A DNA stretch of 64,000 nt from a bacterium. Its GTDB lineage: Bacteria > Patescibacteriota > Doudnabacteria > UBA920. Positions 3,218 through 48,867 of the stretch are shown in pieces; positions within the stretch are counted from its first letter, which is position 1; the number at the start of each line of letters is the position of its first letter. The notes under the pieces are model-generated. The model saw only the letters and a program-made list of their open reading frames with translations, was not told the origin of the DNA and did no database searches. The DNA lies in assembly GCA_021825655.1 (NCBI GenBank), contig JAKAGU010000003.1, positions 12,014 through 76,013 on the forward strand, given 5' to 3'. Both the position numbers and the translations under genes were made by a program.

Positions 3218-4759
3218 ATGGACCCAGAAAAAAATCCACCCCAAACCCAGGAAGACGTGCTGCGGGCGGCGAGCGCAACCCCCGCTGCCAAAAACCTGCA
3301 CGAAGATGAACCGCAGGTTTATAATGTCATGCCGCGGCTATTACACAAAAACAACGTATCCCAGCCCGTCATGGAAGTGGTGGACAACTCTCCAAACTCC
3401 ATCGACGGCCTGCAGTCGGCCTCGCCGGCCGGGGGCGTAAATTTTATAAAAATCCTGAAAATAGCCATACTAACAGTGGCTGTTCTCGGTCTCGGCTATG
3501 CCGGCTACCGTTTCGGGCCCAAATACTACAAACAATTTTTTCTGGCCAGCAAGACTGCGGCTCCGGCTCCGGCCCAGACTGCCGACCAATCCACCCAAAG
3601 CACTCAGGACCAAGTTCAGGCCACCTCTTCCCCTGACCAAAACGCAAACAATTCTGCCTTGCCCTCGGATTGGCTCAAAAAATATTTTGGGGTGGATGTT
3701 TGCGATAAGCCCACGGAATGCGGGCCCGACGCCGATCCGGACCTGGACGGCCTTACCAATCTTGAAGAATATCAGCAGGGGACCGACCCAAACAACGCAG
3801 ACTCCGATGGCGACGGCCTGTCCGATGGCGACGAAGTCCATGTATTTTTGTCAAATCCTTTAAAAAAATACTCGAACAACGATCCCAAATACACGGATGC
3901 GGACTATTTTAAGGGCGGCTATGATTTAACCACAACCCAACTAATGACACCTGATCGGCTTCTGGAAATTAAAACCCGGATGTCGGACAAAGGCTTGCAT
4001 CCGCCTACAATCGCCACTTTAGGGGACGCTCTGCAAAAAATTTATAACTTCGGCAGCCCCCTGGACACTTCGGGCCAGCAGGCCTCAAGCACCCCCAGTT
4101 CCACCCCTGACCAGGCTTTGGACGGTTTTGAAGTGACACCCGCAGCCCAGCAGGATCGCGACGCCCAGCGCACCACCACCATAAAAAATATCGGCATCGG
4201 TTTGATTAAATACTACGATAACAACAAAAGCTACCCCAACACCACTGACTTTAAGGAAATGTACGACGCAATCCGAGTCTTCATGAAAGTGGCCACCAAT
4301 CCGCAAGACCCGGTTAATAAGGCTCCCTACGTTTACACTTATGCGCCAAGTGCGGCCGGAGACGATTTTACACTGGCCTATTACAGCGAGGTTGTCCGGC
4401 AGACAATAAAAAAACACGCGGCAGACGCACAAAAAGACAAAGCCACCGAAGAGGCTGCTATTTACGACGACCAAAGGATCAACGACTTAAAGCGCCTCCA
4501 AACCGCGCTTTTGCTTTACTCTTCCAAACAGGCAGCCGGCAACCAGGATAATGTTTTTCCTTCGGCGGAAAAATACAAGACCGAACTCTTGGTCAGCGGC
4601 GACATTACCGACATACCCACAGATCCCAAAACACACAACGACTACGAATATAAGGTAAACGACACCTTTAACACTTTCACCTTAAAAGCCGTACTCGACA
4701 ATCCGCCAACGGGCTCCACCGGCTACCTGTGCAACCAGCTCAACTGCGATTATTACTAA
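3218..4759 (+). CDS. membrane-anchored surface protein with thrombospondin-type-3-like Ca-binding repeats and two tandem pseudopilin (GspG/PulG)-like domains
   Basis: Single TM segment (FIKILKIAILTVAVLGLGYAG) after a roughly 70 aa N-terminal region, then an STQ-rich linker. DADPDLDGLTNLEEYQQGTDPNNADSDGDGLSDGDE matches DxDxDG repeats. Two repeats follow: RDAQRTTTIKNIGIGLIKYYDNNKSYP ... DPVNKAPYVYTY ... FTLAYY, and RINDLKRLQTALLLYSS ... TDPKTHNDYEYK ... FTLKAV. The protein ends in a Cys pair, CNQLNC. Confidence 0.5.
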   Translation: MDPEKNPPQTQEDVLRAASATPAAKNLHEDEPQVYNVMPRLLHKNNVSQPVMEVVDNSPNSIDGLQSASPAGGVNFIKILKIAILTVAVLGLGYAGYRFGPKYYKQFFLASKTAAPAPAQTADQSTQSTQDQVQATSSPDQNANNSALPSDWLKKYFGVDVCDKPTECGPDADPDLDGLTNLEEYQQGTDPNNADSDGDGLSDGDEVHVFLSNPLKKYSNNDPKYTDADYFKGGYDLTTTQLMTPDRLLEIKTRMSDKGLHPPTIATLGDALQKIYNFGSPLDTSGQQASSTPSSTPDQALDGFEVTPAAQQDRDAQRTTTIKNIGIGLIKYYDNNKSYPNTTDFKEMYDAIRVFMKVATNPQDPVNKAPYVYTYAPSAAGDDFTLAYYSEVVRQTIKKHAADAQKDKATEEAAIYDDQRINDLKRLQTALLLYSSKQAAGNQDNVFPSAEKYKTELLVSGDITDIPTDPKTHNDYEYKVNDTFNTFTLKAVLDNPPTGSTGYLCNQLNCDYY

Positions 4760-13152: not shown

Positions 13153-14124
13153 ATGTTTGAATCCGGACGAAAAAAAATTAAGTACCGCAACCTGCATTTC
13201 AAACGGGAGCTGGAAAAAGCCCGGCAGTATAAGCGTCCGGCCCGCCAGCTGCCGGAAACCAAGACCGCCGTTTTCTTGGAAAAAATCGGCCTGGGCAGCA
13301 GGCTGTCCAAATTCTTCACGCTGCTGGCTTTTTGCCTGCTCGTTTACCTGGTTTTCATTCCCAACTTTTTATTTATCAAGTCCGTACAGATTACCGGGGA
13401 CAGCCTGGTGCACAAACAGCAGCATGAAGATATTGTGGCTTCGTTCTTAAATTCCAGCAGGGCTTGGCCGCAAAAAAACCTGCTGCTTTTGAGCAGCGGC
13501 AAATTAAAACAGGACCTGGCCAAAGACCCCTGGGTTATTTCCGTAGATTCGGTAGAAAAAGTCTGGCCCAACCGGCTGGCTATCCGGCTAACCGAGCGGC
13601 GCGAATTCGCCTTAGTGGAAACCAAAGATGCCAAGATGGTTTTTTCCAACGACGGGCGCTATTTGAGCACACTTACCGGCAGCACCACGCCGGACAACAC
13701 CCTGGTCGTACTCAAAACTTCGGAAGACCTTAGCCAAGATAAACCGCTGCCCTCGGCCAGCCTGGAGCTAATCAGAACCCTGCAGCAAAAAATCCCCGAA
13801 ATTTGTCATTCCACAGTTTCCGCTTACGATATTTACCCTTCAACCAACCCTGACGTGGAAGCCGAAACTGCGGCAGGCTATAAACTTATTTTTGACACCA
13901 GCAACGACAGCACAGAAGTCCTGGACAACCTCTCGGTCTTAATCGACAAGCTGTCACAGGACGAAAAAAACCGTCTTTTTTACATAGACTTAAGAATTAA
14001 AAACAAAGCTTACGTTTGTTTCAAGGGCACCAGCTGCACCACAGACACGGTGTTTCAAAACCCTTTTGTAACAGGGCAGAACGCAAGCACCAGCGCTTCA
14101 TCAACGCTCCCAACACCTCAATGA
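13153..14124 (+). CDS. ftsQ: cell division protein FtsQ/DivIB-like (TM anchor plus POTRA domain)
   Basis: N-terminal TM segment, then DPWVISVDSVEKVWPNRLAIRLTERREFALVE, matching the FtsQ POTRA signature (PW..S..V.R.WPN.L.I.V.ER.P.A). Confidence 0.6.
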   Translation: MFESGRKKIKYRNLHFKRELEKARQYKRPARQLPETKTAVFLEKIGLGSRLSKFFTLLAFCLLVYLVFIPNFLFIKSVQITGDSLVHKQQHEDIVASFLNSSRAWPQKNLLLLSSGKLKQDLAKDPWVISVDSVEKVWPNRLAIRLTERREFALVETKDAKMVFSNDGRYLSTLTGSTTPDNTLVVLKTSEDLSQDKPLPSASLELIRTLQQKIPEICHSTVSAYDIYPSTNPDVEAETAAGYKLIFDTSNDSTEVLDNLSVLIDKLSQDEKNRLFYIDLRIKNKAYVCFKGTSCTTDTVFQNPFVTGQNASTSASSTLPTPQ

Positions 14125-14801
14125 AAAAACTTTCGGTAATCTCACTTGGCGGTTCGCTCATTTTTCCAGGAAAGATCAACACGGCCTTTCTAAAAAACTT
14201 CAGGCGGCTGATTTTAGAACGGATAAAAAAAGGCGAGCGGTTTATTATCATCACGGGTGGAGGGCAGCTCTGCCGGGAATATAACTCCGCCCTGGAAACA
14301 GTCGGCCGGCCCAGCCCCGCAGACCTGGACTGGATGGGCATAAATGTGACCTGGACCAACGCCAAGCTGATTCAACTAATGTTCGGAAAAAACGCGCATC
14401 CGGAAGTGGCCACAAACCCAGAACAGCCAATAGCATTTAAACGGCCCATTTTAGTGGGCGGCGGCTGGAAGCCGGGCAGAAGCTCCGACGGGGCCACGGT
14501 CAAATATGCCCAAACGTACGGGGCGCAGTCGGTTATTAACCTCAGTAATATAGACTTTGTTTACGAGCAAGATCCGAAAAAATTCCCAGGCGCAAAAAAA
14601 ATTGAAAGCATTTCCTGGAAAAATTTCCGCAAAATAGTCGGGAATAAATGGGATCCGGGCGCAAACCTGCCCTTTGACCCCACGGCTGCCAAATTTGCCG
14701 AAGCACACAGGCTGAAAGTTATCATCACCCGTGGCACGGATATAAAAAATTTGCGTAGCCTGTTGGCCGGCCGGCCGGCCAAAGGCACAACCATTTCCTA
14801 G
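14121..14801 (+). CDS. pyrH: UMP kinase, short archaeal-like type (amino-acid-kinase fold)
   Basis: MKKLSVISLGGSLI, ITGGGQ, SSDGATVKYAQTYGAQSVINLSNIDFVYEQDPKKFPGAKKI. The start overlaps the ftsQ stop (ATGA). The long N-terminal extension in the track is rejected. Confidence 0.6.
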   Translation: MKKLSVISLGGSLIFPGKINTAFLKNFRRLILERIKKGERFIIITGGGQLCREYNSALETVGRPSPADLDWMGINVTWTNAKLIQLMFGKNAHPEVATNPEQPIAFKRPILVGGGWKPGRSSDGATVKYAQTYGAQSVINLSNIDFVYEQDPKKFPGAKKIESISWKNFRKIVGNKWDPGANLPFDPTAAKFAEAHRLKVIITRGTDIKNLRSLLAGRPAKGTTIS

Positions 14802-14804
14802 CTT

Positions 14805-14844
14805 TCAAAAAAAACCGGACTTCGGGCGAAGTCCGGTTTTTTTT
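14805..14844. terminator. bidirectional intrinsic terminator between converging pyrH and the GT-C genes
   Basis: A8 - ccggacttcgggcgaagtccgg - T9. Confidence 0.7.
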
Positions 14845-14851
14845 GTTTTAC

Positions 14852-16450
14852 TTACTGCACCTTGTATTCAGTCACAACAATCCAAGTGCCCACATAGGGC
14901 CTAACCTCGGCAAAACCTTTTTCGTCCAGCTTGACCCAGTTCTTCGGCGTTTCGGGCTTGCTAGAACCGAATCCGTTTGTCCACAGCAGCCAGACCAGGT
15001 CGCCGCGCTTGACCTGGGTATTAAAGTCCGGCAGCAGGTCTTGGTTGGTCAAAATTGCCGTACCGGCAAAGTGCGGCAAGTCACTGACCTCACGGCTGCC
15101 GCCGGTGTAGAGCAGGGGCCTGACCGGCGTTTGGTTGTAATACTTAAAATTGAAAAATTCAAAGCTAGTACCCACATATAGCTTGTCTTCGGGCTGTACG
15201 TTGGCATCCAAAAATTTGGCGGCCGCAGCCATTCCCGGCTTGGTCTGCACGCCCAAATCCTGCCAGTACACGTACACCCCAATAAGATTAAAGGTTACGC
15301 AGGCACCAAAAAGGAGATAGGCGATTTTTTTATACCGTAGCTGGCCAAGCCATGCAGCCAGAGCGATATTCAAAAATGCAGCGGTGAAAATAAAGTATCT
15401 GACCAAATATACGGACGAACTGCTGCCTTTCAGCCGGGCCAAAATGTAAAACAGGAAAGAGCCGCCGAACGGCGCCAAAATTGCCAGAATTACCAGCCAT
15501 TTTTCAAAAACTTGGGTTTTTCTGAGGAACCGGTACAGAAAATATAGGGCAAACACAAAAGTTACCGCCAGTAAAATCTGGGTTTTAAATTTTGCCGGAT
15601 CATGGCCGATGCCGAATAGCAAAGTCCAAAGCGTAGAGGGAATACTCCACCGGTCCACGGGAGGTATCCAGTATCCGGCATCCACCTGCCGGTACTGGAA
15701 CAAAAAAGTCTTGAGCCAGGGCAAAAAAGAAAGGGCGATCAGCAAAAAAGACAGCAACAGCCAGCTATATTTTTTAATGCTGCCCTCATGGTGGAAAAAC
15801 AAATAAACCAACCCGTAAAAGCAGATTGCAGTAGCCGTAAACAGCAGGTAATAGTGGGTATAAATTAGAACGACCGTACTTAAAACAAAACCCAAATAAT
15901 TCCAAAGCATGCTCCGCTTCAAAGCAATTTCCTGGGGCAGGCGGGGCATGGCCAATTTACTGGTTCCGTACAGGTCTTTTTGGCGGTGGAGAGCCTTGGT
16001 CAAAAAGTAAGCCGAGAGTACGGCAAAAAATGCGCCCATGGTATACATCCTGGCCTCTGTAACATATTGGACGGAAAAAGGATTGACAGCTGCCAAAAGC
16101 CCGGCCCACAGGGCCAGCTTTTCGCTCTTAAAGGCTTCCCGAACGAACAGCCATACTGCCCACACCGTAAGGACGCCGAAGAGGACTGACATGCCGCGCA
16201 AAGAAAGCAGCGAATCCCCGAAGACATAATGCCACAGGCGCAAAAAAACGTAATACATAGGCGGATGCACATCCAGGCCGATGCGGTACATCATTTCCTT
16301 CCATGGGTAGCGGATGAGCAGGGCGGAAAAAGCCTCGTCGTGCCAAAGCGAAATGGCCGTTAAATTCCAAAATCTTAATGCGGCGGCCAGCGCCAGAATT
16401 CCGGCAATAGGCCAATACCTTTTTATGTGCATAGAAAACTTATTTTTCAC
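14852..16450 (-). CDS. GT-C membrane glycosyltransferase (ArnT/PMT-like, polyprenyl-phosphate-sugar dependent)
   Basis: Multi-TM protein with a first-loop WHDEAFSALLIRYPW (DE motif), 532 aa. Confidence 0.7.
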   Translation of the reverse strand: MKNKFSMHIKRYWPIAGILALAAALRFWNLTAISLWHDEAFSALLIRYPWKEMMYRIGLDVHPPMYYVFLRLWHYVFGDSLLSLRGMSVLFGVLTVWAVWLFVREAFKSEKLALWAGLLAAVNPFSVQYVTEARMYTMGAFFAVLSAYFLTKALHRQKDLYGTSKLAMPRLPQEIALKRSMLWNYLGFVLSTVVLIYTHYYLLFTATAICFYGLVYLFFHHEGSIKKYSWLLLSFLLIALSFLPWLKTFLFQYRQVDAGYWIPPVDRWSIPSTLWTLLFGIGHDPAKFKTQILLAVTFVFALYFLYRFLRKTQVFEKWLVILAILAPFGGSFLFYILARLKGSSSSVYLVRYFIFTAAFLNIALAAWLGQLRYKKIAYLLFGACVTFNLIGVYVYWQDLGVQTKPGMAAAAKFLDANVQPEDKLYVGTSFEFFNFKYYNQTPVRPLLYTGGSREVSDLPHFAGTAILTNQDLLPDFNTQVKRGDLVWLLWTNGFGSSKPETPKNWVKLDEKGFAEVRPYVGTWIVVTEYKVQ

Positions 16451-16455
16451 TTTAA

Positions 16456-18273
16456 TTATTTAACTTCGTATACGGCCATGGCTGCCTGGCCGAACTGGTT
16501 GCGTACCTCCAGAACAAGTTTGGTTTCCGGATGGTATGCTTTAAATTTTTTAATGTCAAAAATCGAACTCTGGGTAAACACAATCTGGTCGCCGGCTTTC
16601 AGGCCTTTGAGCTCCCAGGAATTTTCAGGATCCACCTGCATATAAGGCACGCTGCATGGGCTGTCAAAGTTACCCTTAGGGTCGCTGGTAATATAATCCG
16701 TGGTCTGTACAGAAAATTTATCCAGTACCAAATAAGTGGAATCTTTTTTGCAGCGCTCCACCAGGTATTTACCCACGGGGCTCAGATCGGAACGGAAGGC
16801 ATAAAAATTTTCCGGGCTGTTTGCGGCATATACAAAATAAGCAAAATAGGCTTGCAAAACCAGAGCGGCAAAAAACAAGGCCACAACCGCCTTAAGCAGC
16901 CTGCTGTTAAACTGATAAAAGCGCTGCTGGCCGGAAACCGGCTTGTTCCAATCCCAGACCGAGCCTGATCCCAATTTTTTTTGCCATAATTTTTCCCTGA
17001 AACTCATAGCGCCTTCAGCAAACCACATCAGGCCCAACGCGGTTAAGATGAACACCGGGGGGATAACGCCAATACCCCTCAAGCCGTGCGGTATGCCTTC
17101 TGCCGTACTGACAACAGGTAGGAGTAAGCCAAAAAACCAGCCAATAAGCAAATAGTATGTCCAGTAACGGCTTCTTTTGGCCGGAGCAAAGAAATACGCT
17201 ATGGCAAAAAACAAAGCTGCCAGCAAAGCCACGGCAAAAAACGGGCTGATGAGGGGGGAAAGGAAGGGGTAGCCGGAAACATTCTGCCGCCAATTCAAGT
17301 CGCCCTGGAAGAAAAAGCCCAGCATCTGGGTTTTAAAAACCTCGCCCATCACGGAACCGACCACGGAAAGGGGAGGCTTGCTGGTCAACTGCACGCCGTT
17401 AACCGTATACAACTCCTGGTTAAAGATGCTCACCTGGCCGGCCCGGCCCAGAAAAGAGCCCGGGTGCTGGTAAAAATACTTGCCAATGGGGTAGAAAAAT
17501 ATCACGAAAGCCACCAGAAATGAAACAGCAGGCCAAAAATATGTTTTTACTTCAGCCTTAAGGATTTTTTGTTTCAGCGCACCCAAAAGCGGCCACAGCA
17601 GCACCATAAACAAAATCGGCGCCATAATCCTGAAAGCGATGTAAGTATAAAAACCTAAAGCAAAACTAGCTCCGGTCAAAAAGCTATACAACAATTTTTT
17701 CTTGTTGATGGCTGCGGTATAGGTACAAAGCAAAAAATAAAAGGTCAAAGAAGCAAACAGGGGGATAAGGATTGCGCGGAAAGCGGTCCGGGAAAGCACA
17801 ATATGCCAGGAATTTACAGCCATCAGGAAAGTGGCCAGCAGGGCAATGTTCACGGCCCGGCGCTTGCCGGATTCGTCTTCCGGATCCAAGGTAAAACTCA
17901 AAAGTTTTTTGGTCACCAAGAAACACATAAGCACGGACAAAAGACCCACCAGCGCCGACACCAAATGGTGTTGCCAAGCGCCCTTGCCAAACAGTTCAAC
18001 GCCGCCCCAAAGCATATAGAAGAAAAGCGCCTCGCGACCATTACCGCGCTCGTAAAAAGGCTGAAGCACGCCTTTTTGCATTAAGTTAACATCCAAACCA
18101 TTGGCGGCTTCATCGGGAAACAAGCCGCCGGGCATACCCGGCTGCAGGTTCTCTACCTTAAAGTCCTTAATTGAGCACTGGCTGCCGCAATCCCAATGAA
18201 AGAGCAGGTAAAACCTAAAAAAAGCAGCCAGGATTAAAATTATAGCCAGCAGATATTTTTGGTTTCGGGTCAT
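16456..18273 (-). CDS. GT-C membrane glycosyltransferase (ArnT/PMT-like), paralogue of the gene downstream
   Basis: LFPDEAANGLDVNLM (DE motif) and many TM segments. Only 5 nt separate it from the next gene. Confidence 0.7.
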   Translation of the reverse strand: MTRNQKYLLAIILILAAFFRFYLLFHWDCGSQCSIKDFKVENLQPGMPGGLFPDEAANGLDVNLMQKGVLQPFYERGNGREALFFYMLWGGVELFGKGAWQHHLVSALVGLLSVLMCFLVTKKLLSFTLDPEDESGKRRAVNIALLATFLMAVNSWHIVLSRTAFRAILIPLFASLTFYFLLCTYTAAINKKKLLYSFLTGASFALGFYTYIAFRIMAPILFMVLLWPLLGALKQKILKAEVKTYFWPAVSFLVAFVIFFYPIGKYFYQHPGSFLGRAGQVSIFNQELYTVNGVQLTSKPPLSVVGSVMGEVFKTQMLGFFFQGDLNWRQNVSGYPFLSPLISPFFAVALLAALFFAIAYFFAPAKRSRYWTYYLLIGWFFGLLLPVVSTAEGIPHGLRGIGVIPPVFILTALGLMWFAEGAMSFREKLWQKKLGSGSVWDWNKPVSGQQRFYQFNSRLLKAVVALFFAALVLQAYFAYFVYAANSPENFYAFRSDLSPVGKYLVERCKKDSTYLVLDKFSVQTTDYITSDPKGNFDSPCSVPYMQVDPENSWELKGLKAGDQIVFTQSSIFDIKKFKAYHPETKLVLEVRNQFGQAAMAVYEVK

Positions 18274-18284
18274 AGTTTTTGTGT

Positions 18285-18313
18285 TTGCTTTATGGCAGCA
18301 ATTTCAGTATAAT
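18285..18313 (+). promoter_or_regulatory. sigma70-like promoter directly abutting the start codon at 18320 (possible leaderless transcript)
   Basis: TTGCTT, 17 nt spacer, TATAAT. The ATG lies 7 nt after the -10 hexamer. Confidence 0.4.
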
Positions 18314-18319
18314 TTATGC

Positions 18320-18667
18320 ATGAAATTGCTTGCCAAAGTTGAAGAAAATAATTATTTTTTGTTTCTTTGGGCCTTGTGCCTGATTTTTAATATTATAACA
18401 TTTTTATTCATTTACTACAAAATCCTGCCTTCCGGCAACACCTTTGCCTTAAAATACAACGTGATTACCGGGGTAGAATGGTATGGCAAGGGCTACAACC
18501 TTTACCAGATTCCGCTGGTCGGTTTGGCCATCCTGGGTTTGAATTATCTGCTTAGCCGCTTGCTCAGACATCGGGCGGACTTTCTGGCAGCCATGGCTAT
18601 TTTCGTCACTCTGGTCGTACAGCTGCTGCTATTGGCCGCAGCCTTGTTTTTAAAAACCGTTAACTAA
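18320..18667 (+). CDS. small membrane protein, hypothetical
   Basis: Starts MKLLAKVEEN; hydrophobic. Its stop overlaps the GT2 start (TAATG). Confidence 0.35.
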   Translation: MKLLAKVEENNYFLFLWALCLIFNIITFLFIYYKILPSGNTFALKYNVITGVEWYGKGYNLYQIPLVGLAILGLNYLLSRLLRHRADFLAAMAIFVTLVVQLLLLAAALFLKTVN

Positions 18668-20334
18668 TGTTCAGAAAACGCACTCTTACTGAAAGGTTTT
18701 GGGAAATCCAGCCAGGGCTCCACTTCTGGACCGTGTTTATTTTGGCGGTTACCCTGTCCTATTTGCAGCCGGTTTGGGCTGCGCTTTTCATTGTATGTTT
18801 TGACCTGTACTGGGTACTGAAGGCTTTGAACGTGGCCAGCCACCTAATGTCCAGTTATTTGAAATTTAAATTTTTTGTCACCATTGACTGGCTGGACTGG
18901 ACCGAACGCCTTCAGGACTTGCCGGGCTTTATCGGGTTTCTCAAAGAACGTCGGACGAGTCCGGTCAGCCAGCGCGAAAAAAAATACTTGGAATGGGAAA
19001 TTACCCGCCTGAACCAGCTGGCCGAAAAAGGCAGGACTGCCTTGGATTACAAAAAATATTACCAGCTCGTGCTCATTCCTTTTGTGGACGAAAGCTTTGA
19101 AGTTTTGGACTCCACGCTGCACGCCATAACGGCCTCCAATTACCCCAAGGATAAAATGCTCCTGCTTTTGGCCAGCGAGGAACGGGCGGGCCAGGAAGCC
19201 AGGGCTGTTGCCAGCCGCATTAAGGAAAAATACCAGGGGGCGTTTTATAAGTTTTTTGTCACCGCTCACCCGGACGGCCTGGCGGGGGAGATAAAAGGCA
19301 AGAGCGCCAACGCCTCTTACGCCGTGCAGGCAATCCTGCCCGACCTGGCGGCTGCGGGCATTGGCGTAGAACAGGTTTTGGTTTCGAATTTTGATTCCGA
19401 CACCATTGTGCATCCCCAGTATTTTTCGCGCGTGGTCTACGAGTTCCTAACCGCGGATAAGCCTTACCAGAGCAGCTACCAGCCGATTGCGGTATACAAC
19501 AACAACATTTGGGACAGCCCCGCGCTCATCCGGGTAATTAGCGTTTCCAATTCTTTCTGGCAGTTCACCGAGAGCAGCCGGCCAGACCGCCTGAGGACTT
19601 TTTCTTCGCACAGCATGCCGCTAAAAACTTTGGTGGAAGTCGGCTTCTGGAAAAAAGACATTGTCAATGAAGACGGTTACATTTACTGGCAATGCTATAT
19701 GCATTTTAAGGGCGATTACCATGTCGTGCCGCTTTTCGTACCCATTAGCCTGGACACCTGCCTAGCGGCCTCAACCTGGGAAACCATCAAAAACCAGTAC
19801 AAGCAAAAACGGCGCTGGGCCTACAACGTGGAATATTACCCGCATTTGGTGCCCAAACTTTTAACCCTGGACGCACCCCTCTGGGACCGGCTCTATAAAC
19901 TTTTCCAGTACGTGGAAGGCAATTTCAACTGGGCTACGGCCAGCATTATGATTTCCATGCTCGGCTGGCTGCCGCTGTTCGTCGGCGGCGACGATTTTTA
20001 TACCACAGTGGTGGCGTTCAACCTGCCCTTCATCACCAAGGTGCTGATGAACACCGCGCTCTTCTTTTTGATTTTCAGCGTATACATAAATATGATTCTT
20101 CTGCCGCCCCGACCGGCTAAATACGGCGCCACACGCAGCGTCATGATGTACCTGCAGTGGTTTTTAGTGCCTATCGCTTCGGTAATTTTTGGCAGCTTGC
20201 CGGCCGTGGAAGCCCAGACCCGCCTCCTGTTCGGAAAATACCTGGAATTCTGGGTCACGCCCAAAGCCCGCCTGGGCGAAAACACCGGCCTGTCCATGAA
20301 AGAAATGCAAGCCGTAAACACCCCCCGCAAATAA
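18667..20334 (+). CDS. processive family-2 glycosyltransferase (cellulose/chitin/PNAG-synthase-like), membrane embedded
   Basis: N- and C-terminal TM segments; DSD (NFDSDTIV), NEDG (TED-like) and a QxxRW-type motif KQKRRW. Confidence 0.55.
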   Translation: MFRKRTLTERFWEIQPGLHFWTVFILAVTLSYLQPVWAALFIVCFDLYWVLKALNVASHLMSSYLKFKFFVTIDWLDWTERLQDLPGFIGFLKERRTSPVSQREKKYLEWEITRLNQLAEKGRTALDYKKYYQLVLIPFVDESFEVLDSTLHAITASNYPKDKMLLLLASEERAGQEARAVASRIKEKYQGAFYKFFVTAHPDGLAGEIKGKSANASYAVQAILPDLAAAGIGVEQVLVSNFDSDTIVHPQYFSRVVYEFLTADKPYQSSYQPIAVYNNNIWDSPALIRVISVSNSFWQFTESSRPDRLRTFSSHSMPLKTLVEVGFWKKDIVNEDGYIYWQCYMHFKGDYHVVPLFVPISLDTCLAASTWETIKNQYKQKRRWAYNVEYYPHLVPKLLTLDAPLWDRLYKLFQYVEGNFNWATASIMISMLGWLPLFVGGDDFYTTVVAFNLPFITKVLMNTALFFLIFSVYINMILLPPRPAKYGATRSVMMYLQWFLVPIASVIFGSLPAVEAQTRLLFGKYLEFWVTPKARLGENTGLSMKEMQAVNTPRK

Positions 20335-20335
20335 C

Positions 20336-21430
20336 ATGCCTTATTTTTTTTATTTTTTAGCCGCCACTCTGCTGTCCGCCCTGTTTACGCCTGTAGTCAA
20401 AAAGGCGGCCTTCCGTTTCCAAATTCTGGACATACCCAACAGCCCGAGAAAAATCCAAAAGCACCCCACGCCGCTTTTGGGCGGGGTGTCGGTCTTCTTG
20501 TCTTTTGTGCTTGTTACGGCTGGCTACCTGCTGTTGTCCCGGCCCGATTTTAATATTGTACCTTTCAAATTCTTCCTGGGCATTTTCAGCGGCGGACTTG
20601 TGCTGCTGGTAGGCGGGATTTTGGACGATAAATACAACCTGCCGCCCAGGGCTTTGTGGCTGTTCCCGGCCCTAGCCTCGCTGTGCGTTGTCGCCTCCGG
20701 CATTGGCGTGGGTATCACCACGCTTTCCAACCCTTTCGGCGGCACGCTCAACATTGGCCAGGTAATTTTTGGCATCAAGCTTTCTGCACTGATTATGTGG
20801 TTATGGATGATGGGCATGATATTCACCACCAAATTTTTGGACGGGCTGGACGGGCTCTGCTCCGGCATTGCGCTCATCGGCGGCCTGACCTTGTTCGCGC
20901 TGTCTTTGACCGAACACATCAACCAGCCCATCACGGCCAGCCTGGCCGTCATCTTTACGGGGGCAATTGCCGGATTTTTGCTCTACAACTTCCACCCGGC
21001 CAGTATTTTTCTGGGCGAATCAGGCAGCACGTTTTTGGGCTTTGGCTTGGGGGTTTTGGCCATCATCCTGGGCGGAAAAATCGCTACCGCGCTGCTGATT
21101 ATGGGCATCCCCATTTTAGACGTGGCTTGGGCTATTATGCGGCGGCTGTGGTACGGGCAAAGCCCATTTAAAGCGGACAAAAGCCACTTGCACCACCGCC
21201 TCCTGGATATTGGCCTGTCCCAGCGCCAAGCCGTGCTGGTGCTGTACGGCATTTCCGCAATTTTCGGGTTTACAGCCGTATTTCTGCAATCCATGGGCAA
21301 ACTGATCGCCCTGGGCGTGCTGTTCTGCGTCATGGTGGTCTTGGCCCTGGCTTTGGTTATGATTTACAAGCGCCAGCACCCCCATATTCCCGACCTGTTT
21401 GATAAGGTTGACGAAAAAGCCCAAAAATGA
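20336..21430 (+). CDS. polyprenyl-phosphate N-acetylhexosamine-1-phosphate transferase (GT4, WecA/MraY family)
   Basis: PRKIQKHPTPLLGGVSVF, ILDDKYNLP, FLDGLDGLCSG, NFHPASIFLGESGSTFLGFGLG, HLHHRLLDIGLSQRQ (WecA-type HIHHRL). Confidence 0.75.
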   Translation: MPYFFYFLAATLLSALFTPVVKKAAFRFQILDIPNSPRKIQKHPTPLLGGVSVFLSFVLVTAGYLLLSRPDFNIVPFKFFLGIFSGGLVLLVGGILDDKYNLPPRALWLFPALASLCVVASGIGVGITTLSNPFGGTLNIGQVIFGIKLSALIMWLWMMGMIFTTKFLDGLDGLCSGIALIGGLTLFALSLTEHINQPITASLAVIFTGAIAGFLLYNFHPASIFLGESGSTFLGFGLGVLAIILGGKIATALLIMGIPILDVAWAIMRRLWYGQSPFKADKSHLHHRLLDIGLSQRQAVLVLYGISAIFGFTAVFLQSMGKLIALGVLFCVMVVLALALVMIYKRQHPHIPDLFDKVDEKAQK

Positions 21431-21477: not shown

Positions 21478-21783
21478 ATGTTCGCAATCATTGAAACCGG
21501 CGGCAAGCAGTATCTGGTCAAAAAAGGCGAGAAGCTGCAAGTGGAGAAACTGGCAGGCGAAGCCGGCCAAACTTTGAAATTTGAAAAAGTGCTCTTTACC
21601 TCAGACGGCAAAACTTTTCAGCTGGGCAAGCCTTATGTCTCCGGCGCCAGCGTGGAAGCCAAGGTCTTAAAACAGGGCAAAGGCAGAAAAGTGGAAGTCC
21701 TGAAATACAAAGCCAAAAGCAAGTACCGCCGCAAGATTGGCCACCGCCAGCACTTTACCGAAATCCAAATCACCAAGATCTAA
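21478..21783 (+). CDS. rplU: 50S ribosomal protein L21
   Basis: MFAIIETGGKQYLVKKGEKLQVEKL. Confidence 0.9.
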   Translation: MFAIIETGGKQYLVKKGEKLQVEKLAGEAGQTLKFEKVLFTSDGKTFQLGKPYVSGASVEAKVLKQGKGRKVEVLKYKAKSKYRRKIGHRQHFTEIQITKI

Positions 21784-21785: not shown

Positions 21786-21817
21786 CAAAACCCCCGCTTG
21801 TACAGCGGGGGTTTTTA
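21786..21817 (+). terminator. intrinsic terminator after rplU
   Basis: cccccgc ttgtaca gcggggg, then T5. Confidence 0.65.
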
Positions 21818-36000: not shown

Positions 36001-36533
36001 CTGTTGCGCTGCAGCTCGATAAAAAAATTGCTTGGTCCGAAAATATCCAGGTACTTCTCCAAAACCTTTTGCGCTTCCGCCTCGCTTCTGTTCATAACCG
36101 CGCGGGCCACTTCGCCGCGCTGGCAGCCGGACAGGGCAATCAGCCCTGCTGCGTGCTGCTTTAAAACGTCCAAGTCTATTCGGGGCTTGTAGTAAAAACC
36201 TTCCAAATGGGCAATAGTGGTCAGCTTCATCAGGTTGCTGTAACCGCTGCGGTCCTTGGCCAGAAGGGTCAGGTGGAAATAGTCGCTGTCAACTTTTCCC
36301 TCCTTATCGGAGAGCTTCCTGGGAGCCACATAGGCTTCCAGCCCGATAATCGGCTTAATACCTTCTTCGCGGCAACGGTTATAAAACTCAATGGCGCCGT
36401 ACATGGCGCCATGGTCAGTTACGGCCAGGGAGGTCATCCCCAGCTCTTTTACCCTCGAAATAAGGGGATCCAGCTTGGAAAGTCCGTCGAGCAGGGAAAA
36501 ATGGGTATGGCAGTGCAAATGGGTAAAACGCAT
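33075..36533 (-). CDS. dnaE: DNA polymerase III alpha subunit
   Basis: PHP domain MRFTHLHCHTHFSLLDG, polymerase core, 1152 aa. Confidence 0.9.
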   Translation of the reverse strand: MRFTHLHCHTHFSLLDGLSKLDPLISRVKELGMTSLAVTDHGAMYGAIEFYNRCREEGIKPIIGLEAYVAPRKLSDKEGKVDSDYFHLTLLAKDRSGYSNLMKLTTIAHLEGFYYKPRIDLDVLKQHAAGLIALSGCQRGEVARAVMNRSEAEAQKVLEKYLDIFGPSNFFIELQRNSRQKDEREEELNRRLVALARKNALDIVATSDSHYVYPEDSEAQDVLVCIGTAQTINDEGRLDMRGYDLSIKSPEQMMELFADLPEAVDNTQKIADACVLEIDINQRYFPKVRLPEGISSEEYLKQTVYEKAVPLYGENGEVPEAIRQRIEYELNIICKKGFDTYFLMVADVVQGAHKIGAITNTRGSAAGSIVGRILGITNVDPLYYELPFERFLTMHRPTPPDIDLDIADNRRDEAIAYITEHYGKDKVAQIITFGTMMARAAVRDVGRALGVPYSKCDRIAKMIPIGKQGFHMTLDKALDISPELKEVYDRDPETKRVLDIAKKLEGGARHASVHAAGIVITPTELTDYMPLQKEPDGERVITQYDMYALDVNANGKAIGVVKLDLLGIRNLSILEAAVKIAEKRHNAKIDIYNLPHPDPKTFELLSAGLTFGVFQMGSSGMTRYLRELKPSSIFDVMAMIALYRPGPMQFIPDYIARKHNAKLISYLDPALEKILQRTYGVLVYQDDLLTIAHDLAGYTWEEVDKFRKAVGKKIPEEMAKQKIKFIQGCQKTSGWSFEKASEIWAWIEPFAAYGFNKSHSASYSMVSYQTAYMKANYPVEFMAALMTAEAGDEDKIYAAVEECANMGIKVLPPDINQSRSGFTVVDEKNIRFGMNAIKNLGSDVIERTIEERKARGPYTSLEDFLIRAYTKNLNKKSWEALCKAGALDAFGERGALLANTEEVLDFVRQHFRAEAAGQGALFGKSMQVGRLKLREVPPAAKEEKMLWEKEHLGMYVSAHPLESYRKVLSNLKAVKDLTPEELGTNQVMGGIVSRLKRTLTKKQDPMAFFTLEDATGSIEVLVFPKAMENALSLLENDKIVQVRGRLSDKDEEFKLIADELTQLPNDDLYQMALSETEKNKQVILHMPRLAAPEVLNEIKSILKKHPGNAQVYLSIGIGPNAKKMKTQTQVTIGGDLLAELKAVAEIGKIDVQ

Positions 36534-36542
36534 GCTTATAGA

Positions 36543-36571
36543 TTATCAAAAAGCGGGGGATTTTGCTATAA
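36543..36571 (+). promoter_or_regulatory. extended -10 promoter (TGcTATAAT) for the downstream membrane-protein gene, divergent from dnaE
   Basis: tgcTATAAT at 36563-36571. Confidence 0.4.
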
Positions 36572-36665
36572 TTTTATTAAGCTAAATTTTAAAAACCAAA
36601 CCACTTTTGTGTCACTATTCAAAGAGAAAGTCGAGATTGGCATCCAGGAAGCCGAACTCGGCGTA

Positions 36666-37496
36666 ATGAAAGGCCTGGTCAAATTCCCGCCCGTACTCCG
36701 CTGGGCTTTGATTATCGGCGTTCTGGCCATCATTCCCTCGTATTACATTTCGCGCCAAATAGCATACCAGTTATGGCGGCAGCGCGATTTGCAATATGCT
36801 CTGGTACCCACGCCCAGCTTCAGCTCTTCTCTGCCCATACGGACAAAAAACACCTGGCTGCTCCAGACCGGCCCGAACCAATACACAAGCGTGGCCGAAG
36901 TAATAAACGACAACCTGGACCTTTCTACCAACGTGGCGGCTTATGAATTTAAATTCTACGGCCCAAACCAAAATCTGATTGTTCCGGACAGCGGCCAAGT
37001 CTCCGGCAAAACCTACTTTTTACCCAACCAGTCCAAATACCTGCTTGCCACCAGAATCACCAGCAAACAGCCAATTACCCGGATGGAAGTGGTCTTTGGC
37101 AGCGACATTGTTTGGCGGAAAAAACTCTCTCTGCCCGCAATCCAACTCAATGTGACCGGCGTTAAATTCTCGCAGCAGGCCTCGCCGCCGGCTTTCGCGG
37201 TGGACGGCCTGGTGGAGAACACCAGCAGCTATGAAATCGGCCAAGTCCGCCTGGTCTTCCTGGTATTCGGCTTCAACCGCCAGCTGCTGGCGGCCAGCGA
37301 AAGAAACGAATTCACCCTGGCCAGCGGTGAAAACCGCGCATACAAACAGCTGTGGCCTGACCAGACTTTTCCCAATGCCGTTTCCGTGCAGGTCCTGGCG
37401 GACACCAACACCCTGGACCAGGGCAACCTGAGGCTGAGCACCAGTCCGCCCGGGTCGGGCTCAGACTTAAGCCGCCCGCAGCAAAACCAAAACTAG
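36666..37496 (+). CDS. membrane-anchored periplasmic-domain protein, hypothetical, immediately upstream of the SEDS gene
   Basis: MKGLVKFPPVLRWALIIGVLAII TM segment, then an extracytoplasmic domain of about 250 aa. The track ORF start at 36207 is antisense to dnaE and is rejected. Confidence 0.4.
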   Translation: MKGLVKFPPVLRWALIIGVLAIIPSYYISRQIAYQLWRQRDLQYALVPTPSFSSSLPIRTKNTWLLQTGPNQYTSVAEVINDNLDLSTNVAAYEFKFYGPNQNLIVPDSGQVSGKTYFLPNQSKYLLATRITSKQPITRMEVVFGSDIVWRKKLSLPAIQLNVTGVKFSQQASPPAFAVDGLVENTSSYEIGQVRLVFLVFGFNRQLLAASERNEFTLASGENRAYKQLWPDQTFPNAVSVQVLADTNTLDQGNLRLSTSPPGSGSDLSRPQQNQN

Positions 37497-37511: not shown

Positions 37512-38612
37512 ATGTTTAACTTTTTAAAAAAATTCGTTTATTTTGATTTGCCCCTGAAGGTTGCGGTCATCCTCCTCTGCCTGGCAGGCATGACGGTTTT
37601 ATACAGCACCTCGCTATCTAACGACAGCCTGACGGCTTTCTGGCGGCAGCTGCTGTTTTTGGGCGTAGGTTTCGTACTCTATCTGTTCTTTAGTTACTTT
37701 GACTACCACTCTCTGGCCAAGGCCAACCGGATTACCTATGTCATATTTTTTATCCTGCTGATTTATTTGCTTTTTTTCGGCCAGAACATCCGCGGCGGAC
37801 GGCGCTGGCTGCACTTAGGGTTTTTCAGTTTGCAAGTGGCGGAGTTCGTCAAAATTGTAATCATCTTGGGTTTGGCGCAGCTGCTTTACATCAAACGGGG
37901 CGAGATTAATTCCTGGAAAATTCTCGGCTGGTCTTTAGCATACGCGGCCCTGCCAGCGGCGCTGGTTATTCTGGAGCCGGACCTGGGGTCCGCCCTGGTC
38001 ATCTTGGCTTTATGGCTGGGGATAATTATGGTCAGCCCAATAAAAAAGAAATACTTACTGGCGATTTTTCTGGCTTTAGTTTTGGTTTCAGGGGTTACCT
38101 GGAAATTTTTTCTCAAAGACTTTCAGCGCGACAGGATTCTGGTTTTCGTTGACCCGCAGCTGGACCCCAAGGGCAAGGGATATAACGTGAGGCAGGCAAC
38201 CATTGCGGTGGGCAGCGGCCAGATTTGGGGCAGGGGGTTGGCCAAGGGCCTGCAGACCCAAAACCGTTTTTTGCCCGAAAGGCAAACCGATTTTATTTTT
38301 GCGGCCACGGGCGAGGAGTTCGGTTTTTTGGGCACCGGCGTTATCTTGCTGCTTTTCTTCCTGATTTTTGTCCGCCTGCTTAATACCATGAAAAGCGCCA
38401 AAGACGATTTGGGTATGTACATAGCCGCAGGCGTATTTTTTTTACTGCTTCTTCACGTCACCGTAAACATCGGCATGAATATAGGCATTCTTCCCGTGAC
38501 CGGCATCCCGCTGCCCTTTTTCAGCTCGGGCGGCAGCTCTTTGATTGCCACCCTGGCAGCCCTGGGTATTATCCAGAACATCAATTTGCAGTCAAAAATG
38601 TTGAGGTTTTAA
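37512..38612 (+). CDS. ftsW: SEDS-family peptidoglycan glycosyltransferase (FtsW/RodA)
   Basis: 10 TM segments, FIFAATGEEFGFLGTGVILLLF, IPLPFFSSGGSSL. Confidence 0.8.
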   Translation: MFNFLKKFVYFDLPLKVAVILLCLAGMTVLYSTSLSNDSLTAFWRQLLFLGVGFVLYLFFSYFDYHSLAKANRITYVIFFILLIYLLFFGQNIRGGRRWLHLGFFSLQVAEFVKIVIILGLAQLLYIKRGEINSWKILGWSLAYAALPAALVILEPDLGSALVILALWLGIIMVSPIKKKYLLAIFLALVLVSGVTWKFFLKDFQRDRILVFVDPQLDPKGKGYNVRQATIAVGSGQIWGRGLAKGLQTQNRFLPERQTDFIFAATGEEFGFLGTGVILLLFFLIFVRLLNTMKSAKDDLGMYIAAGVFFLLLLHVTVNIGMNIGILPVTGIPLPFFSSGGSSLIATLAALGIIQNINLQSKMLRF

Positions 38613-40477: not shown

Positions 40478-41401
40478 ATGAAACAAAAACTTTTAAAACC
40501 GGTCATCACCAACGAGAAACTGATCGCAGCGCTGGCTGTAATTTTCGCGGTCGTTATTTTCGCTTTTTTCAGAATTTTCTTCTACCAGGGCGCGTATGGC
40601 AACCCGCGGCAGGCCTTGCTGCAAATGCCGGAGGCGGATAATGCGGCGCAAACATCCGGACAAGCGCCGGAGGAGGTCGGTTCTAGGAAAAACGCGGGAG
40701 TGCGGATACCCATACTGCTTTACCGCCACATCGGGCCGGTGGCGAAAGACGCGGATCCCCTGCAAAAGGACCGGACAGTCAGTCCGGAAAATTTTGAGCT
40801 CCAGGTGGCCTGGCTGAGAGGCCAGGGCTACGAAAGCGTAAACCTCAGCGATTTACTGGAACATTTCAACAACCAAAAACCTCTGCCCCAAAAAGCAGTG
40901 GTGTTCACATTTAACAACGGCTACCAGGACACGCTGGCCTATGCCCCGGCCACCTTAAAAAAATACGGCTTTACGGGTGATTTCGGGGTCGTTACCCAGT
41001 TTCCCGGCATTGCCGTGGGCGAGAGCGCTTACGCTTCCTGGCAAGACTTACGCCAAGCCAAAAGCCAAGGCATGGAAATTGTGTCCCAAACCCAGGATAA
41101 TTTTGACGGCACGGACAAAAAATACGATAATGGCTTTATTCTCAGAAACCTGTCCGACTCCCAAAAAGACCTAAAAGCCAGCCTGAACCTTAACCTTCCC
41201 ATCCTCATTTACCCATTTGGACACTATGATGCCCGCTATCTGGGCCTGGCCCGGCAAGCCGGATTTTCAATGGGCCTTACGGAAAAAAGCGGCACACTCA
41301 TCCAAGCCGACAGCCTGATGGAAATCCCCAGGCTCGAGGTACACGGCAATGACAGCCTGGAGACTTTCAAAAAATTAATCCAAACCTCCGATGCCAAATA
41401 A
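40478..41401 (+). CDS. membrane-anchored CE4 polysaccharide deacetylase homologue with degenerate catalytic motifs
   Basis: NodB-fold paralogue of the next gene, but the TFDDG motif reads TFNNG and the H-x-x-x-H motif reads SQTQDN. Confidence 0.6.
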   Translation: MKQKLLKPVITNEKLIAALAVIFAVVIFAFFRIFFYQGAYGNPRQALLQMPEADNAAQTSGQAPEEVGSRKNAGVRIPILLYRHIGPVAKDADPLQKDRTVSPENFELQVAWLRGQGYESVNLSDLLEHFNNQKPLPQKAVVFTFNNGYQDTLAYAPATLKKYGFTGDFGVVTQFPGIAVGESAYASWQDLRQAKSQGMEIVSQTQDNFDGTDKKYDNGFILRNLSDSQKDLKASLNLNLPILIYPFGHYDARYLGLARQAGFSMGLTEKSGTLIQADSLMEIPRLEVHGNDSLETFKKLIQTSDAK

Positions 41402-48414: not shown

Positions 48415-48536
48415 TTTTCTCTCTGGGATGAATTATTTACCCCAGAAGTATACCAGAAAAATCCTCTTTTTTGTAGAGTTTTAAGCACTGGATTTTTCCG
48501 GGCAATTATGTTAAAATAAAAAACGCTACCAGCCAC

Positions 48537-48612
48537 GCCGGCTTAGCTCATCTGGTAGAGCAACGGTTTTGTAAACCGTAGGTGGTCGGTTCAAGTCCGA
48601 CAGCCGGCTCCA
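48537..48612 (+). tRNA. tRNA-Thr (anticodon TGT), CCA encoded
   Basis: Acceptor gccggct/agccggc, anticodon stem acggt/accgt with loop ttTGTaa, T arm gtcgg-ttcaagt-ccgac. Confidence 0.85.
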
Positions 48613-48704
48613 TAGCCCACTTTTTATTGGATCATAAAAAGTGCAAAGATTTTCCGACGCCCGGTTAATCTTTAACCAATAAATTTTTAACCTTAAATAA
48701 TCCC

Positions 48705-48860
48705 ATGTCCCAAGACCACTTGATTAACCTGGAGTGCACGGTTTGCCACAACCTCAACTACCAGACCAAGAAGAACAAGAAGAACACCCAGAAGCGTTTG
48801 GAATTGCAGAAGTACTGCAAATTCTGCAAAAAGAAAACCCTGCACAAGGAAACCAAATAG
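48705..48860 (+). CDS. rpmG: 50S ribosomal protein L33 (missed by the ORF track, 51 aa)
   Basis: [51 protein letters not shown]: two CxxC pairs and the KNKKN...RLEL...K.C..C motif of bL33. Confidence 0.8.
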
Positions 48861-48867
48861 TCTTCCT

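Follow-up and report, generated by a model that had tools for sequence, protein, structure and literature searches.

WecA and TagO initiate wall polymers, the WbbE/WbbF system behind the Salmonella O:54 antigen is reportedly a WecA-primed, synthase-dependent O-antigen pathway, and GT-C enzymes of the ArnT/PMT type require polyprenyl-phosphate-monosaccharide donors. In bacterial beta-glucan synthases of glycosyltransferase family 2, the D,D,D,QxxRW set is fully conserved together with the motifs KAG, QxPH/Q and FxVTxK, the last being the conserved motif of the gating loop (PMC6821405). Here we analyze a locus in which such enzymes lie side by side, namely, the five genes at positions 14852-21430 of a 64,000-nt stretch of a Doudnabacteria-type Patescibacterium (GenBank assembly GCA_021825655.1, contig JAKAGU010000003.1; hereafter, the window). 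They encode two GT-C glycosyltransferases (GT-C1 and GT-C2), a small membrane protein with three transmembrane (TM) segments, a family-2 glycosyltransferase (GT2), and a WecA/TagO-like polyprenyl-phosphate N-acetylhexosamine-1-phosphate transferase (PNPT). An initial annotation, made from the DNA letters alone, had typed the gene classes and motifs correctly overall and had read the five genes as one complete pathway. We correct the latter idea: the robust part is the small protein and GT2, followed by PNPT, and judging from sequence and predicted structure, it is on balance probable that the small protein and GT2 constitute a two-subunit, synthase-dependent glycan synthase and exporter.

Likeness of GT2 to processive synthases

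GT2 matches PF13632 (E-value 2.3e-8; 34.6 bits, the cut-off being 27), as do 40 of the 60 members of its family, and is laid out as two N-terminal helices, a GT-A domain, a helix bearing QxxRW and C-terminal TM helices, with a terminal FWVTPK. Its signature comprises E142, E171-E172 (in the place of DD), K212xxN215, D243xD245, Q272P273, N279N280xW282, E335D336, Q380xxR383W384 and F528xVTxK533. The DSD (D243, D245), NEDG (E335, D336) and QKRRW (Q380, R383, W384) motifs pointed out by the initial annotation are invariant in 38 close homologs. In an alignment of the 60 family members, which share 25-67% identity, the core motif residues are kept in 55-60 sequences (E171 59/60, D243 59/60, D245 56/60, D336 59/60, Q380 60/60, R383 57/60 and W384 59/60). 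The terminal stretch E-F528-W-V-T-P-K533 is an exact FxVTxK, invariant in close homologs and kept in the family at F528 in 49, V530 in 43, T531 in 46 and K533 in 57 of the 60 members.

Since searches of PDB chains with the single GT2 sequence and its profile gave nothing significant, we used fold and profile-profile comparisons. The AlphaFold2 (AF2) model of GT2 (predicted local distance difference test, pLDDT, 70; predicted template modelling score, pTM, 0.74) has long helices at residues 7-70 and 422-521, and its best whole-chain Foldseek matches are BcsA (5e-9) and the hyaluronan synthases (HAS) of Chlorella virus and Xenopus, ranging from 5e-9 to 1e-6. By hhalign, the GT2 family matches E. 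coli BcsA at 96.8% (E-value 2.6e-10) and E. coli PgaC at 96.5% (E-value 1e-9), and shows no likeness to E. coli ArnC (4.9%, E-value 0.0081). The BcsA motifs pair with those of GT2 as PTYNED/PFVDES, DD/E171-E172, KAGN/K212-S-A-N215, DCD/D243-S-D245, FFCGS/FSSHS, TED/N334-E335-D336 and QRIRW/Q380-K-R-R383-W384, the last two GT2 stretches also aligning with TED and QRLRW of PgaC. In GT2, Y-Q-P-I stands for QxPH, although the hhalign alignment to BcsA gives no column-by-column match there. Hence, fold and profile comparisons agree in supporting the processive synthase type suggested earlier, with BcsA and PgaC about equally close, whereas the D,D,D,QxxRW set expected of GT2 holds in part: DxD, ED and QxxRW align, but the first DD is replaced by EE.

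The only NCBIfam match of GT2 is TIGR03937 (PgaC_IcaA; E-value 6e-5), which at 22.2 bits fails the cut-off of 422.3, and no NCBIfam cellulose synthase family matches at an E-value of 0.1 or below. GT2 has no PilZ match in Pfam, the protein stopping at residue 555, and there is no BcsB-like gene at the locus. By its sequence, GT2 can be assigned neither to the cellulose nor to the poly-N-acetylglucosamine (PNAG) synthases. Sequence and model together place it among the predicted processive, membrane-embedded, channel-forming GT2 synthases, but in a subfamily of its own, since it has EE for DD, lacks a PilZ domain, carries the gating motif at its terminus and has a 3-TM partner.

The small 3-TM protein

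The small protein consists of three hydrophobic helices. TM1 and TM2 are linked by a conserved aromatic loop, ALxYNVxxGVxWYGxGxNLYxIP, and TM2 and TM3 by a basic one (RLLRHR). By the positive-inside rule, which is the only basis for this orientation, the TM2-TM3 loop is probably cytoplasmic, and the aromatic loop probably points to the outside, close to the exit of the channel. The protein matches no Pfam or NCBIfam family, GtrA (PF04138) included, and we rejected it as PgaD-like at the sequence level (hhalign 0.4%). Its gene always lies within about 140 nt upstream of GT2 (68 of 68 related loci), and its profile finds open reading frames (ORFs) directly upstream of GT2 in three Saccharibacteria-like loci outside the profile's own members (L087, E-value 9e-10; L093 and L094, about 5e-6). 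We propose that it is a dedicated accessory subunit of the synthase.

Conservation of the locus in Doudnabacteria-type genomes and beyond

GT2 homologs number in the thousands. A scan of one genome per species identified 387 genomes with a GT2 relative, and the best 80 of these 387, which we used for locus comparison, belong to Doudnabacteria-type Patescibacteria. The nearest is the Patescibacterial bin FK_Sedi_B_Bin.374, with a GT2 97% identical, followed by 79 genomes of the Doudnabacteria type. The organism is a minimal bacterium of the candidate phyla radiation (CPR), in line with the earlier remark that it looks metabolically minimal. The five-gene block, for which a search in related genomes had been suggested, recurs in the order GT-C1, GT-C2 / small protein, GT2, PNPT nearly everywhere that the contig reaches in about 80 species. 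However, the flanking genes for SerRS, an FtsQ-like protein, UMP kinase (PyrH), L21, RecR and DnaB are kept equally well. Since these unrelated housekeeping neighbours are equally conserved, block order says little about a functional link, and the five-gene adjacency in Doudnabacteria-type genomes reflects general collinearity.

The junctions within the block differ in their integrity. The small gene and GT2 are separated by a median of 8 nt without insertions (68 loci); the median gap between GT2 and PNPT is 8.5 nt, with insertions of 0.35-2.6 kb in 10 of 72 loci; and that between GT-C2 and GT-C1 is 8 nt, exceeding 200 nt in 13 of the 59 loci and reaching 1.8 kb, with GT-C2 absent altogether in four loci. 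The median identities to the window proteins are 75.5% for DnaB, 70% for RecR, 69% for SerRS, 68% for GT2, 67% for L21, 61% for PNPT, 55% for GT-C1, 54% for GT-C2 and 46% for the small protein; that is, GT2 is conserved as strongly as housekeeping genes within these genomes.

We also traced distant GT2 homologs (25-43% identity) to their contigs. In the Saccharibacteria-like loci examined, the small protein is encoded directly upstream of GT2 in six of six, PNPT directly downstream in three of six, with the genes overlapping or nearly so, and the GT-C pair beside them in none of six. The robust unit is the small protein and GT2, PNPT is a frequent third member, and the GT-Cs are neighbours in one class only. 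A single five-gene system is thus not supported, the housekeeping flanks being equally collinear in one class and the small protein and GT2, with or without PNPT, being all that is found in the other.

In two Omnitrophota genomes (L084 6535-10708 and L095 4538-8700), a GT2 homolog about 30% identical to other family members is flanked on one side by the gene for a PEGA-domain membrane protein of 488 aa and on the other by that for a secreted hydrolase of clan GH-A (GH42/GH5/GH10-like). The trio looks like a classic synthase-dependent exopolysaccharide operon, in three genes.

Essentiality of the positionally equivalent pair in Southlakia epibionticum

The transposon insertion sequencing (Tn-seq) screen of S. 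epibionticum is, to our knowledge, the only one published for Patescibacteria. In its tables (Wang et al. 2023, PMC10633639), SEML1_0124 is entered as a hypothetical protein of 105 aa whose gene overlaps the next by 4 nt, and SEML1_0125, 564 aa long, is called a 'glycosyltransferase family 2 protein' and carries PF13632 (residues 242-481), its domain being assigned to PDB 4p02 (BcsA). Both are graded GD/ES/ES, and of 63 input insertions in SEML1_0125, 1, 0 and 0 are left in the three samples (PMC10633639). A PH-domain gene and a SurA-like gene precede the pair, as they do in L086 and L087. SEML1_0124/0125, both scored essential, are positionally equivalent to the small protein and GT2, and this core appears to be essential in a cultured relative. 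The text of that paper does not contain the word 'glycosyltransferase' and does not discuss SEML1_0124/0125 (PMC10633639).

Since MraY is the sole PF00953 entry tabulated for S. epibionticum, the synthase pair can work and be essential without a WecA-like PNPT. GtrA-like proteins, PF00535 GT2s, several GT-Cs and a DPMS-GT-C fusion are tabulated at other loci (PMC10633639), so that this organism has conventional GT-C donors apart from the synthase; the fusion, SEML1_0793, joins a DPMS-like GT2 with a PMT_2 GT-C. The exopolysaccharide genes highlighted by Wang et al., SEML1_0081-0083 (PMC10633639), were considered as a counterpart of the system described here and rejected, as they form a Wzx/Wzy-type locus.

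The polyprenyl-phosphate transferase

PNPT matches PF00953 (E-value 3.7e-27, 95.7 bits against a cut-off of 27), carries the DGLDGL and HLHHRL motifs attributed to it and has about 10 TM segments. It is nearer to WecA than to MraY by NCBIfam score (113.7 versus 45.8 bits) and by BLASTP against the E. coli proteins (WecA, E-value 8e-20 over 298 aa; MraY, 6e-10 over 138 aa), but it misses the NCBIfam WecA equivalog cut-off of 326 bits, so that its sugar nucleotide may differ from that of E. coli WecA. The designation 'GT4' given to it earlier was a naming slip, Glycos_transf_4 being the Pfam name of the PNPT superfamily and not CAZy GT4. By analogy with WecA-primed systems, its coupling to GT2 suggests a polyprenyl-diphosphate-N-acetylhexosamine (polyprenyl-PP-HexNAc) primer or anchor.

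About ten Doudnabacteria loci have an extra gene between GT2 and PNPT (L002 1751-4048, and also L001, L015, L023, L024 and L070), with shorter inserts in L011, L019 and L078. The sequenced examples encode a 765-aa polytopic membrane protein, the L001 copy being split by a frameshift. We considered this protein as a YfhO-like GT-C for its N-terminal motif, but leave it unassigned, since it has no Pfam or NCBIfam match and no hhalign match to either GT-C profile.

The GT-C pair

GT-C1 matches the Pfam family PMT_2 (PF13231; E-value 4.5e-15, 56.7 bits against the curated cut-off of 26.1), and by this homology is predicted to have the GT-C fold. It has nine hydrophobic segments, and its motif WHDEAFS, in the first extracytoplasmic loop, is invariant, the WHDEAF reported earlier corresponding to W36, H37, D38, E39, A40 and F41 (37 orthologs). 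GT-C2 alone reaches PMT_2 at an E-value of 0.002 and 18.8 bits, under the cut-off of 26.1. Nevertheless, its ortholog families, its profile match to GT-C1 and the fold of its model establish it as a GT-C enzyme. Many of its orthologs match PF13231 or PF02366 and bear the NCBI name 'GT family 39'; its profile matches that of GT-C1 over 288 N-terminal columns (hhalign probability 97.3%, E-value 1.8e-11); and the top Foldseek matches of its AF2 model (pLDDT 81, pTM 0.84) are AglB (1.7e-6) and ArnT (1.9e-6), followed by STT3, Pmt1/2, Pmt4, ALG3 and EmbA/B. These fold matches are GT-C enzymes, not the unrelated membrane proteins with which the initial annotation feared that the pair might group. 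GT-C2 carries the motif GGLFPDEAANGLD; in the FPDEAANG recognized before, P53, D54, A56, A57, N58 and G59 do not vary, and conservation reaches at least 90% at E55. Its residues from about 490 to 605 form a C-terminal soluble alpha/beta domain.

The description of the two GT-Cs as paralogous is right in a remote sense; they are not close, sharing 26% identity over 150 aa in BLASTP (E-value 0.008). Neither their single sequences nor their profiles found anything significant among PDB chains, and hhalign of both profiles to E. coli ArnT gave no signal, so the label 'ArnT-like' is one of fold and Pfam only. What ties them to the synthase is adjacency, and that in a single class.

Two observations on GT-C genes elsewhere may be added. 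S. epibionticum has a GT39/PMT_2 gene beside dnaB (SEML1_0400/0401; tables of PMC10633639), comparable to the GT-C pair near dnaB in the window, and in the relative L001 a PemK-family toxin gene (7085-7471) lies between the two GT-C genes.

Gene organization and transcription units

The coordinates originally given for all five ORFs proved accurate (Table 1), as did the TAATG stop/start overlap between the small gene and GT2 and the 1-nt gap between GT2 and PNPT. The ORF of the small gene opens at the GTG, but its orthologs point to the ATG as the likely start, which leaves a divergent intergenic gap of just 46 nt. The likely true start of GT-C1 is the ATG at 16432 (residue 7), where its orthologs begin, with GTG 16450 as the alternative. 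The spacing of 5 nt claimed for the two GT-C genes therefore applies to the GTG start and becomes 23 nt with the ATG. The overlapping promoters proposed for the divergent units find no support, the promoter scan being at chance level (10 sites versus 6.3 +/- 3.0 expected).

A terminator scan found two strong bidirectional terminator-like hairpins, each between convergent genes. The one between the pyrH-like gene and the convergent GT-C1 ends the GT-C2-GT-C1 unit, and the other follows rplU, which encodes L21 and is the next gene after PNPT in most related loci. As the latter hairpin is the first strong terminator 3' of small-GT2-PNPT, L21 is possibly on the same transcript. The hairpins bound two units, GT-C2-GT-C1 on the minus strand and small-GT2-PNPT, possibly with rplU, on the plus strand.

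Table 1. Positions of the locus genes, the flanking hairpins and other window features mentioned in the text
Feature	Position	Strand	Length	Description
GT-C1	14852..16450	-	532 aa	PMT_2-type GT-C glycosyltransferase (predicted fold)
GT-C2	16456..18273	-	605 aa	GT-C fold, remote paralog of GT-C1
Small 3-TM membrane protein	18320..18667	+	115 aa from ATG; 128 aa if GTG 18281	Proposed partner of GT2
GT2	18667..20334	+	555 aa	Membrane-embedded, processive synthase type (predicted)
PNPT	20336..21430	+	364 aa	WecA/TagO-like polyprenyl-phosphate HexNAc-1-phosphate transferase
Terminator-like hairpin	14806..14845	.	18-bp stem	Bidirectional intrinsic, A/T runs on each side
Terminator-like hairpin	21787..21815	.	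12-bp stem	Bidirectional, A/T runs
rplU (L21)	21478..21783			Between PNPT and the second hairpin
AA-kinase gene	14118..14801			Archaeal-type UMP kinase, convergent with GT-C1
CE4 pair	40478..42287			Degenerate and intact copy in tandem
Intact CE4	41391..42287			Second gene of the pair
TSP3-repeat protein	3218..4759		513 aa	May be a surface/adhesin protein
ORF overlapping dnaE 5' end	36207..37496		429 aa	Directly upstream of the FtsW/RodA gene
FtsW/RodA gene	37512..38612
Low G+C stretch	48001..50000			tRNA-rich

Other features of the window

The polysaccharide deacetylase (CE4) pair is, as first described, one intact and one degenerate copy. The tandem genes overlap by 11 nt; the second keeps FDDG and HTQDH, whereas the first has the degenerate FNNG and QTQDN. 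The two proteins are similar to E. coli PgaB in its N-terminal deacetylase domain (E-values of about 1e-16 to 1e-17; 2e-16 for the intact copy), and for the intact copy NCBIfam ranks the PgaB deacetylase domain (3e-33) and IcaB (2e-18) above the PdaB type. The suggestion that the pair acts on the GT2 polymer is not supported, since 19 kb, with replication and translation genes, separate it from the locus and no CE4 gene occurs within 8 kb of GT2 in related loci.

The AA-kinase gene next to GT-C1 matches the archaeal-type UMP kinase family TIGR02076 with 166 bits against a cut-off of 158 (37 bits for the bacterial PyrH type). As an archaeal-type UMP kinase, and thus a housekeeping enzyme of archaeal kind encoded by a bacterium, it was rejected as an isopentenyl phosphate kinase for polyprenol supply. 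Elsewhere in the window, a 513-aa protein with a bacterial TSP3 repeat has weak matches to CglD (gliding motility) and to a pilus-like system; the part of the 429-aa ORF outside dnaE has no family match; and positions 48001-50000, within the tRNA-rich stretch from an S-adenosylhomocysteine hydrolase gene to an ArsP-type permease gene, have a G+C content of 0.41, versus about 0.49 elsewhere.

A proposed mechanism and the alternatives to it

In the mechanism that we propose, GT2 would take a UDP-sugar at the cytoplasmic face and extend the non-reducing end of a chain processively. The chain would be held at the QxxRW tryptophan and pushed out via GT2's own transmembrane channel, while the C-terminal FxVTxK loop would gate the active site. 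We infer this processivity and export, and likewise the role of the 3-TM protein as a translationally coupled, dedicated partner, whose aromatic loop could meet the emerging chain. The product would most likely be a beta-linked hexose or HexNAc homopolymer in the Patescibacterial envelope. The co-transcribed PNPT would make polyprenyl-PP-HexNAc, serving as primer or anchor for the chain or for a parallel wall polymer. The GT-Cs, as extracytoplasmic enzymes, would use polyprenyl-phosphate sugars made elsewhere in the genome, and may decorate the polymer, the wall or surface proteins.

Several points weigh against this reading. The model of GT2 is of moderate quality (pLDDT 70), its TM-scores to BcsA and HAS are 0.35-0.45, and its sequence profiles reach BcsA in the PDB at an E-value of about 0.3 only. 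In the D,D,D set, glutamate takes the place of the first aspartate (E171-E172 under the BcsA DD), and FxVTxK lies at the extreme C-terminus with no helix behind it, unlike in BcsA. The orthology of SEML1_0125 was judged by its length, position and domain layout, by the overlap of the genes and by the PH-domain and SurA-like genes upstream, not by alignment. Moreover, three Saccharibacteria-like loci have no PNPT beside GT2, and MraY is the sole PF00953 entry in the S. epibionticum table (PMC10633639), so that a lipid-PP-HexNAc primer is not obligatory. Lastly, the GT-C link could be pure collinearity.

As for the product, the system might be PNAG-like, as the initial annotation suggested, GT2 and the small protein corresponding to PgaC/PgaD or IcaA/IcaD, and the poly-N-acetylglucosamine being partly deacetylated by the intact CE4 enzyme. 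This fits with PgaC_IcaA as the sole NCBIfam match, the hhalign match to PgaC, the small membrane partner typical of PgaC and IcaA, the C-terminal gating-type motif as in PgaC, and the affinity of the CE4 enzyme to PgaB and IcaB; in addition, UDP-N-acetylglucosamine must exist for peptidoglycan synthesis. We nevertheless consider it unlikely, because the PgaC_IcaA score of 22 bits falls far short of the required 422, BcsA stands slightly above PgaC in hhalign (85.9 versus 77.3), the small protein has no similarity to PgaD, the CE4 pair is remote here and never near GT2 in related loci, and the Omnitrophota homologs pair with a clan GH-A hydrolase and not with CE4. Alternatively, GT2 could be a processive glycolipid synthase that glycosylates diacylglycerol, ceramide or polyprenol and so yields the anchor of a glycolipid or lipoglycan. 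Lipid glycosyltransferases are indeed found among the PF13632-type GT2s that have TM helices on their flanks, outer secretion partners are lacking, some lineages can do without PNPT, and such an anchor would be essential, as these bacteria scavenge lipids instead of making them, which accords with the essentiality of the pair in S. epibionticum. On the other hand, the top structural matches are channel-forming polymer synthases, the gating-loop motif is invariant, and the secreted glycoside hydrolase beside the Omnitrophota homologs suggests a polymer, making this explanation improbable.

With regard to the GT-Cs, the locus could be a three-component system of the Gtr/Arn kind, in which a polyprenyl-phosphate monosaccharide made by GT2 would be flipped by the small protein, and its sugar passed on by the GT-Cs to an extracytoplasmic acceptor. 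The composition of GT2, small membrane protein and GT-C, in a divergent arrangement, fits, and the GT-Cs need such donors, none of which is encoded by the window ORFs scanned. However, the GT2 profile is unlike ArnC, its QxxRW and FxVTxK motifs belong to chain-elongating synthases, the small protein has three TM segments and matches neither GtrA nor any other family, the small protein and GT2 persist without adjoining GT-Cs in Saccharibacteria-like loci, and other loci of S. epibionticum encode canonical sets of GtrA, PF00535 GT2 and GT-C as well as the DPMS-GT-C fusion, so that we hold a Gtr/Arn system to be very improbable. The same need for donors bears on the 'complete route' of the initial annotation, which was overstated, since no GtrB/ArnC/DPM1-type enzyme or recognizable flippase is found at the locus or among the window ORFs scanned. 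It is rather doubtful that all five genes act on one product. An explanation that we give a similar, appreciable but lesser chance is that unrelated envelope functions lie side by side by class-wide collinearity: a GT-C pair for, e.g., protein or pilin O-glycosylation, a synthase pair, and a PNPT for wall-polymer initiation. Regarding the GT-Cs, this overlaps with the two-subunit synthase that we favor. In keeping with it, the unrelated housekeeping genes around the block keep their order in these genomes as well, GT-C2 is absent from four loci, the GT-C2/GT-C1 and GT2/PNPT junctions are split in 13/59 and 10/72 loci, respectively, the GT-Cs are not next to GT2 in Saccharibacteria-like loci, and the two strands are separate transcription units with their own terminators. 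Nevertheless, the very short GT2-PNPT gaps in two CPR classes argue for that coupling at least, and all five products would act on polyprenyl-linked or membrane-extruded glycans.

A broader proposal, which we put forward tentatively and rate as rather unlikely in its full form, is that the small 3-TM protein and GT2 are an essential envelope-polymer synthase widespread in Patescibacteria, making a new wall or surface glycan in the structural role played by the teichoic acids or lipoglycans of other monoderms, with a polyprenyl-PP-HexNAc primer or anchor where PNPT is present. If true, the pair would stand as a two-subunit branch of its own among the processive GT2 synthases and as a candidate for a vulnerability specific to the lineage. 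The enzyme classes are all known, and annotation pipelines already label them generically; our literature searches turned up no account of this subfamily of GT2s, of the small protein as its obligate partner, of its occurrence across the Doudnabacteria- and Saccharibacteria-type genomes examined, or of its essentiality. As Patescibacteria represent much of bacterial diversity and hardly anything is known of the chemistry of their envelope, a compact gene pair in the Doudnabacteria- and Saccharibacteria-type genomes examined makes the question of their cell coat testable.

Comparison with known systems

The locus resembles GtrA/GtrB/GtrC in composition, but GT2 is of the synthase type and not GtrB-like, and the small protein is not GtrA. 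With ArnT-, PMT- and AglB-type GT-Cs (CAZy GT83/GT39-like), the pair shares PMT_2 in GT-C1, the GT-C fold of GT-C2 (TM-score to ArnT 0.50/0.55) and, in both proteins, a conserved acidic DE pair in the first loop; it differs from the Arn system in having no sequence similarity to ArnT by hhalign and no ArnC/ArnE/ArnF-type partners in the locus. The tight coupling of a WecA-like PNPT to a processive-type GT2 is reminiscent of WecA-primed O-antigen and of WecA/TagO wall polymers, although the locus has no adaptor transferase, ligase or LCP enzyme, and PNPT is absent beside GT2 in several Saccharibacteria-like loci.

PgaC/PgaD of E. coli and IcaA/IcaD of Staphylococcus likewise combine a compact synthase with a small membrane partner, and PgaC also has a gating-type motif at its C-terminal end (RWVSPDRG versus FWVTPKAR of GT2). 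However, the partner described here has three TM segments, lies upstream of GT2 and is dissimilar to PgaD in sequence, GT2 falls far under the PgaC_IcaA cut-off, and the deacetylase is outside the locus. From BcsA, GT2 differs in ending 22 residues past FxVTxK without PilZ, the BcsA motif lying between helices, and in having EE and QP in the place of DD and QxPH, while its partner is a 115-aa 3-TM protein and BcsB a large periplasmic one. Like BcsA (with BcsB; also CrdS and BgsA), which is among its best Foldseek matches, GT2 nonetheless has a GT-A domain flanked by N- and C-terminal TM helices, aligned PxYxE, KxxN, DxD, F(S/C)(S/G), ED and QxxRW motifs, FxVTxK, a translationally coupled membrane partner and, beside the Omnitrophota homologs, a glycoside hydrolase in the manner of BcsZ.

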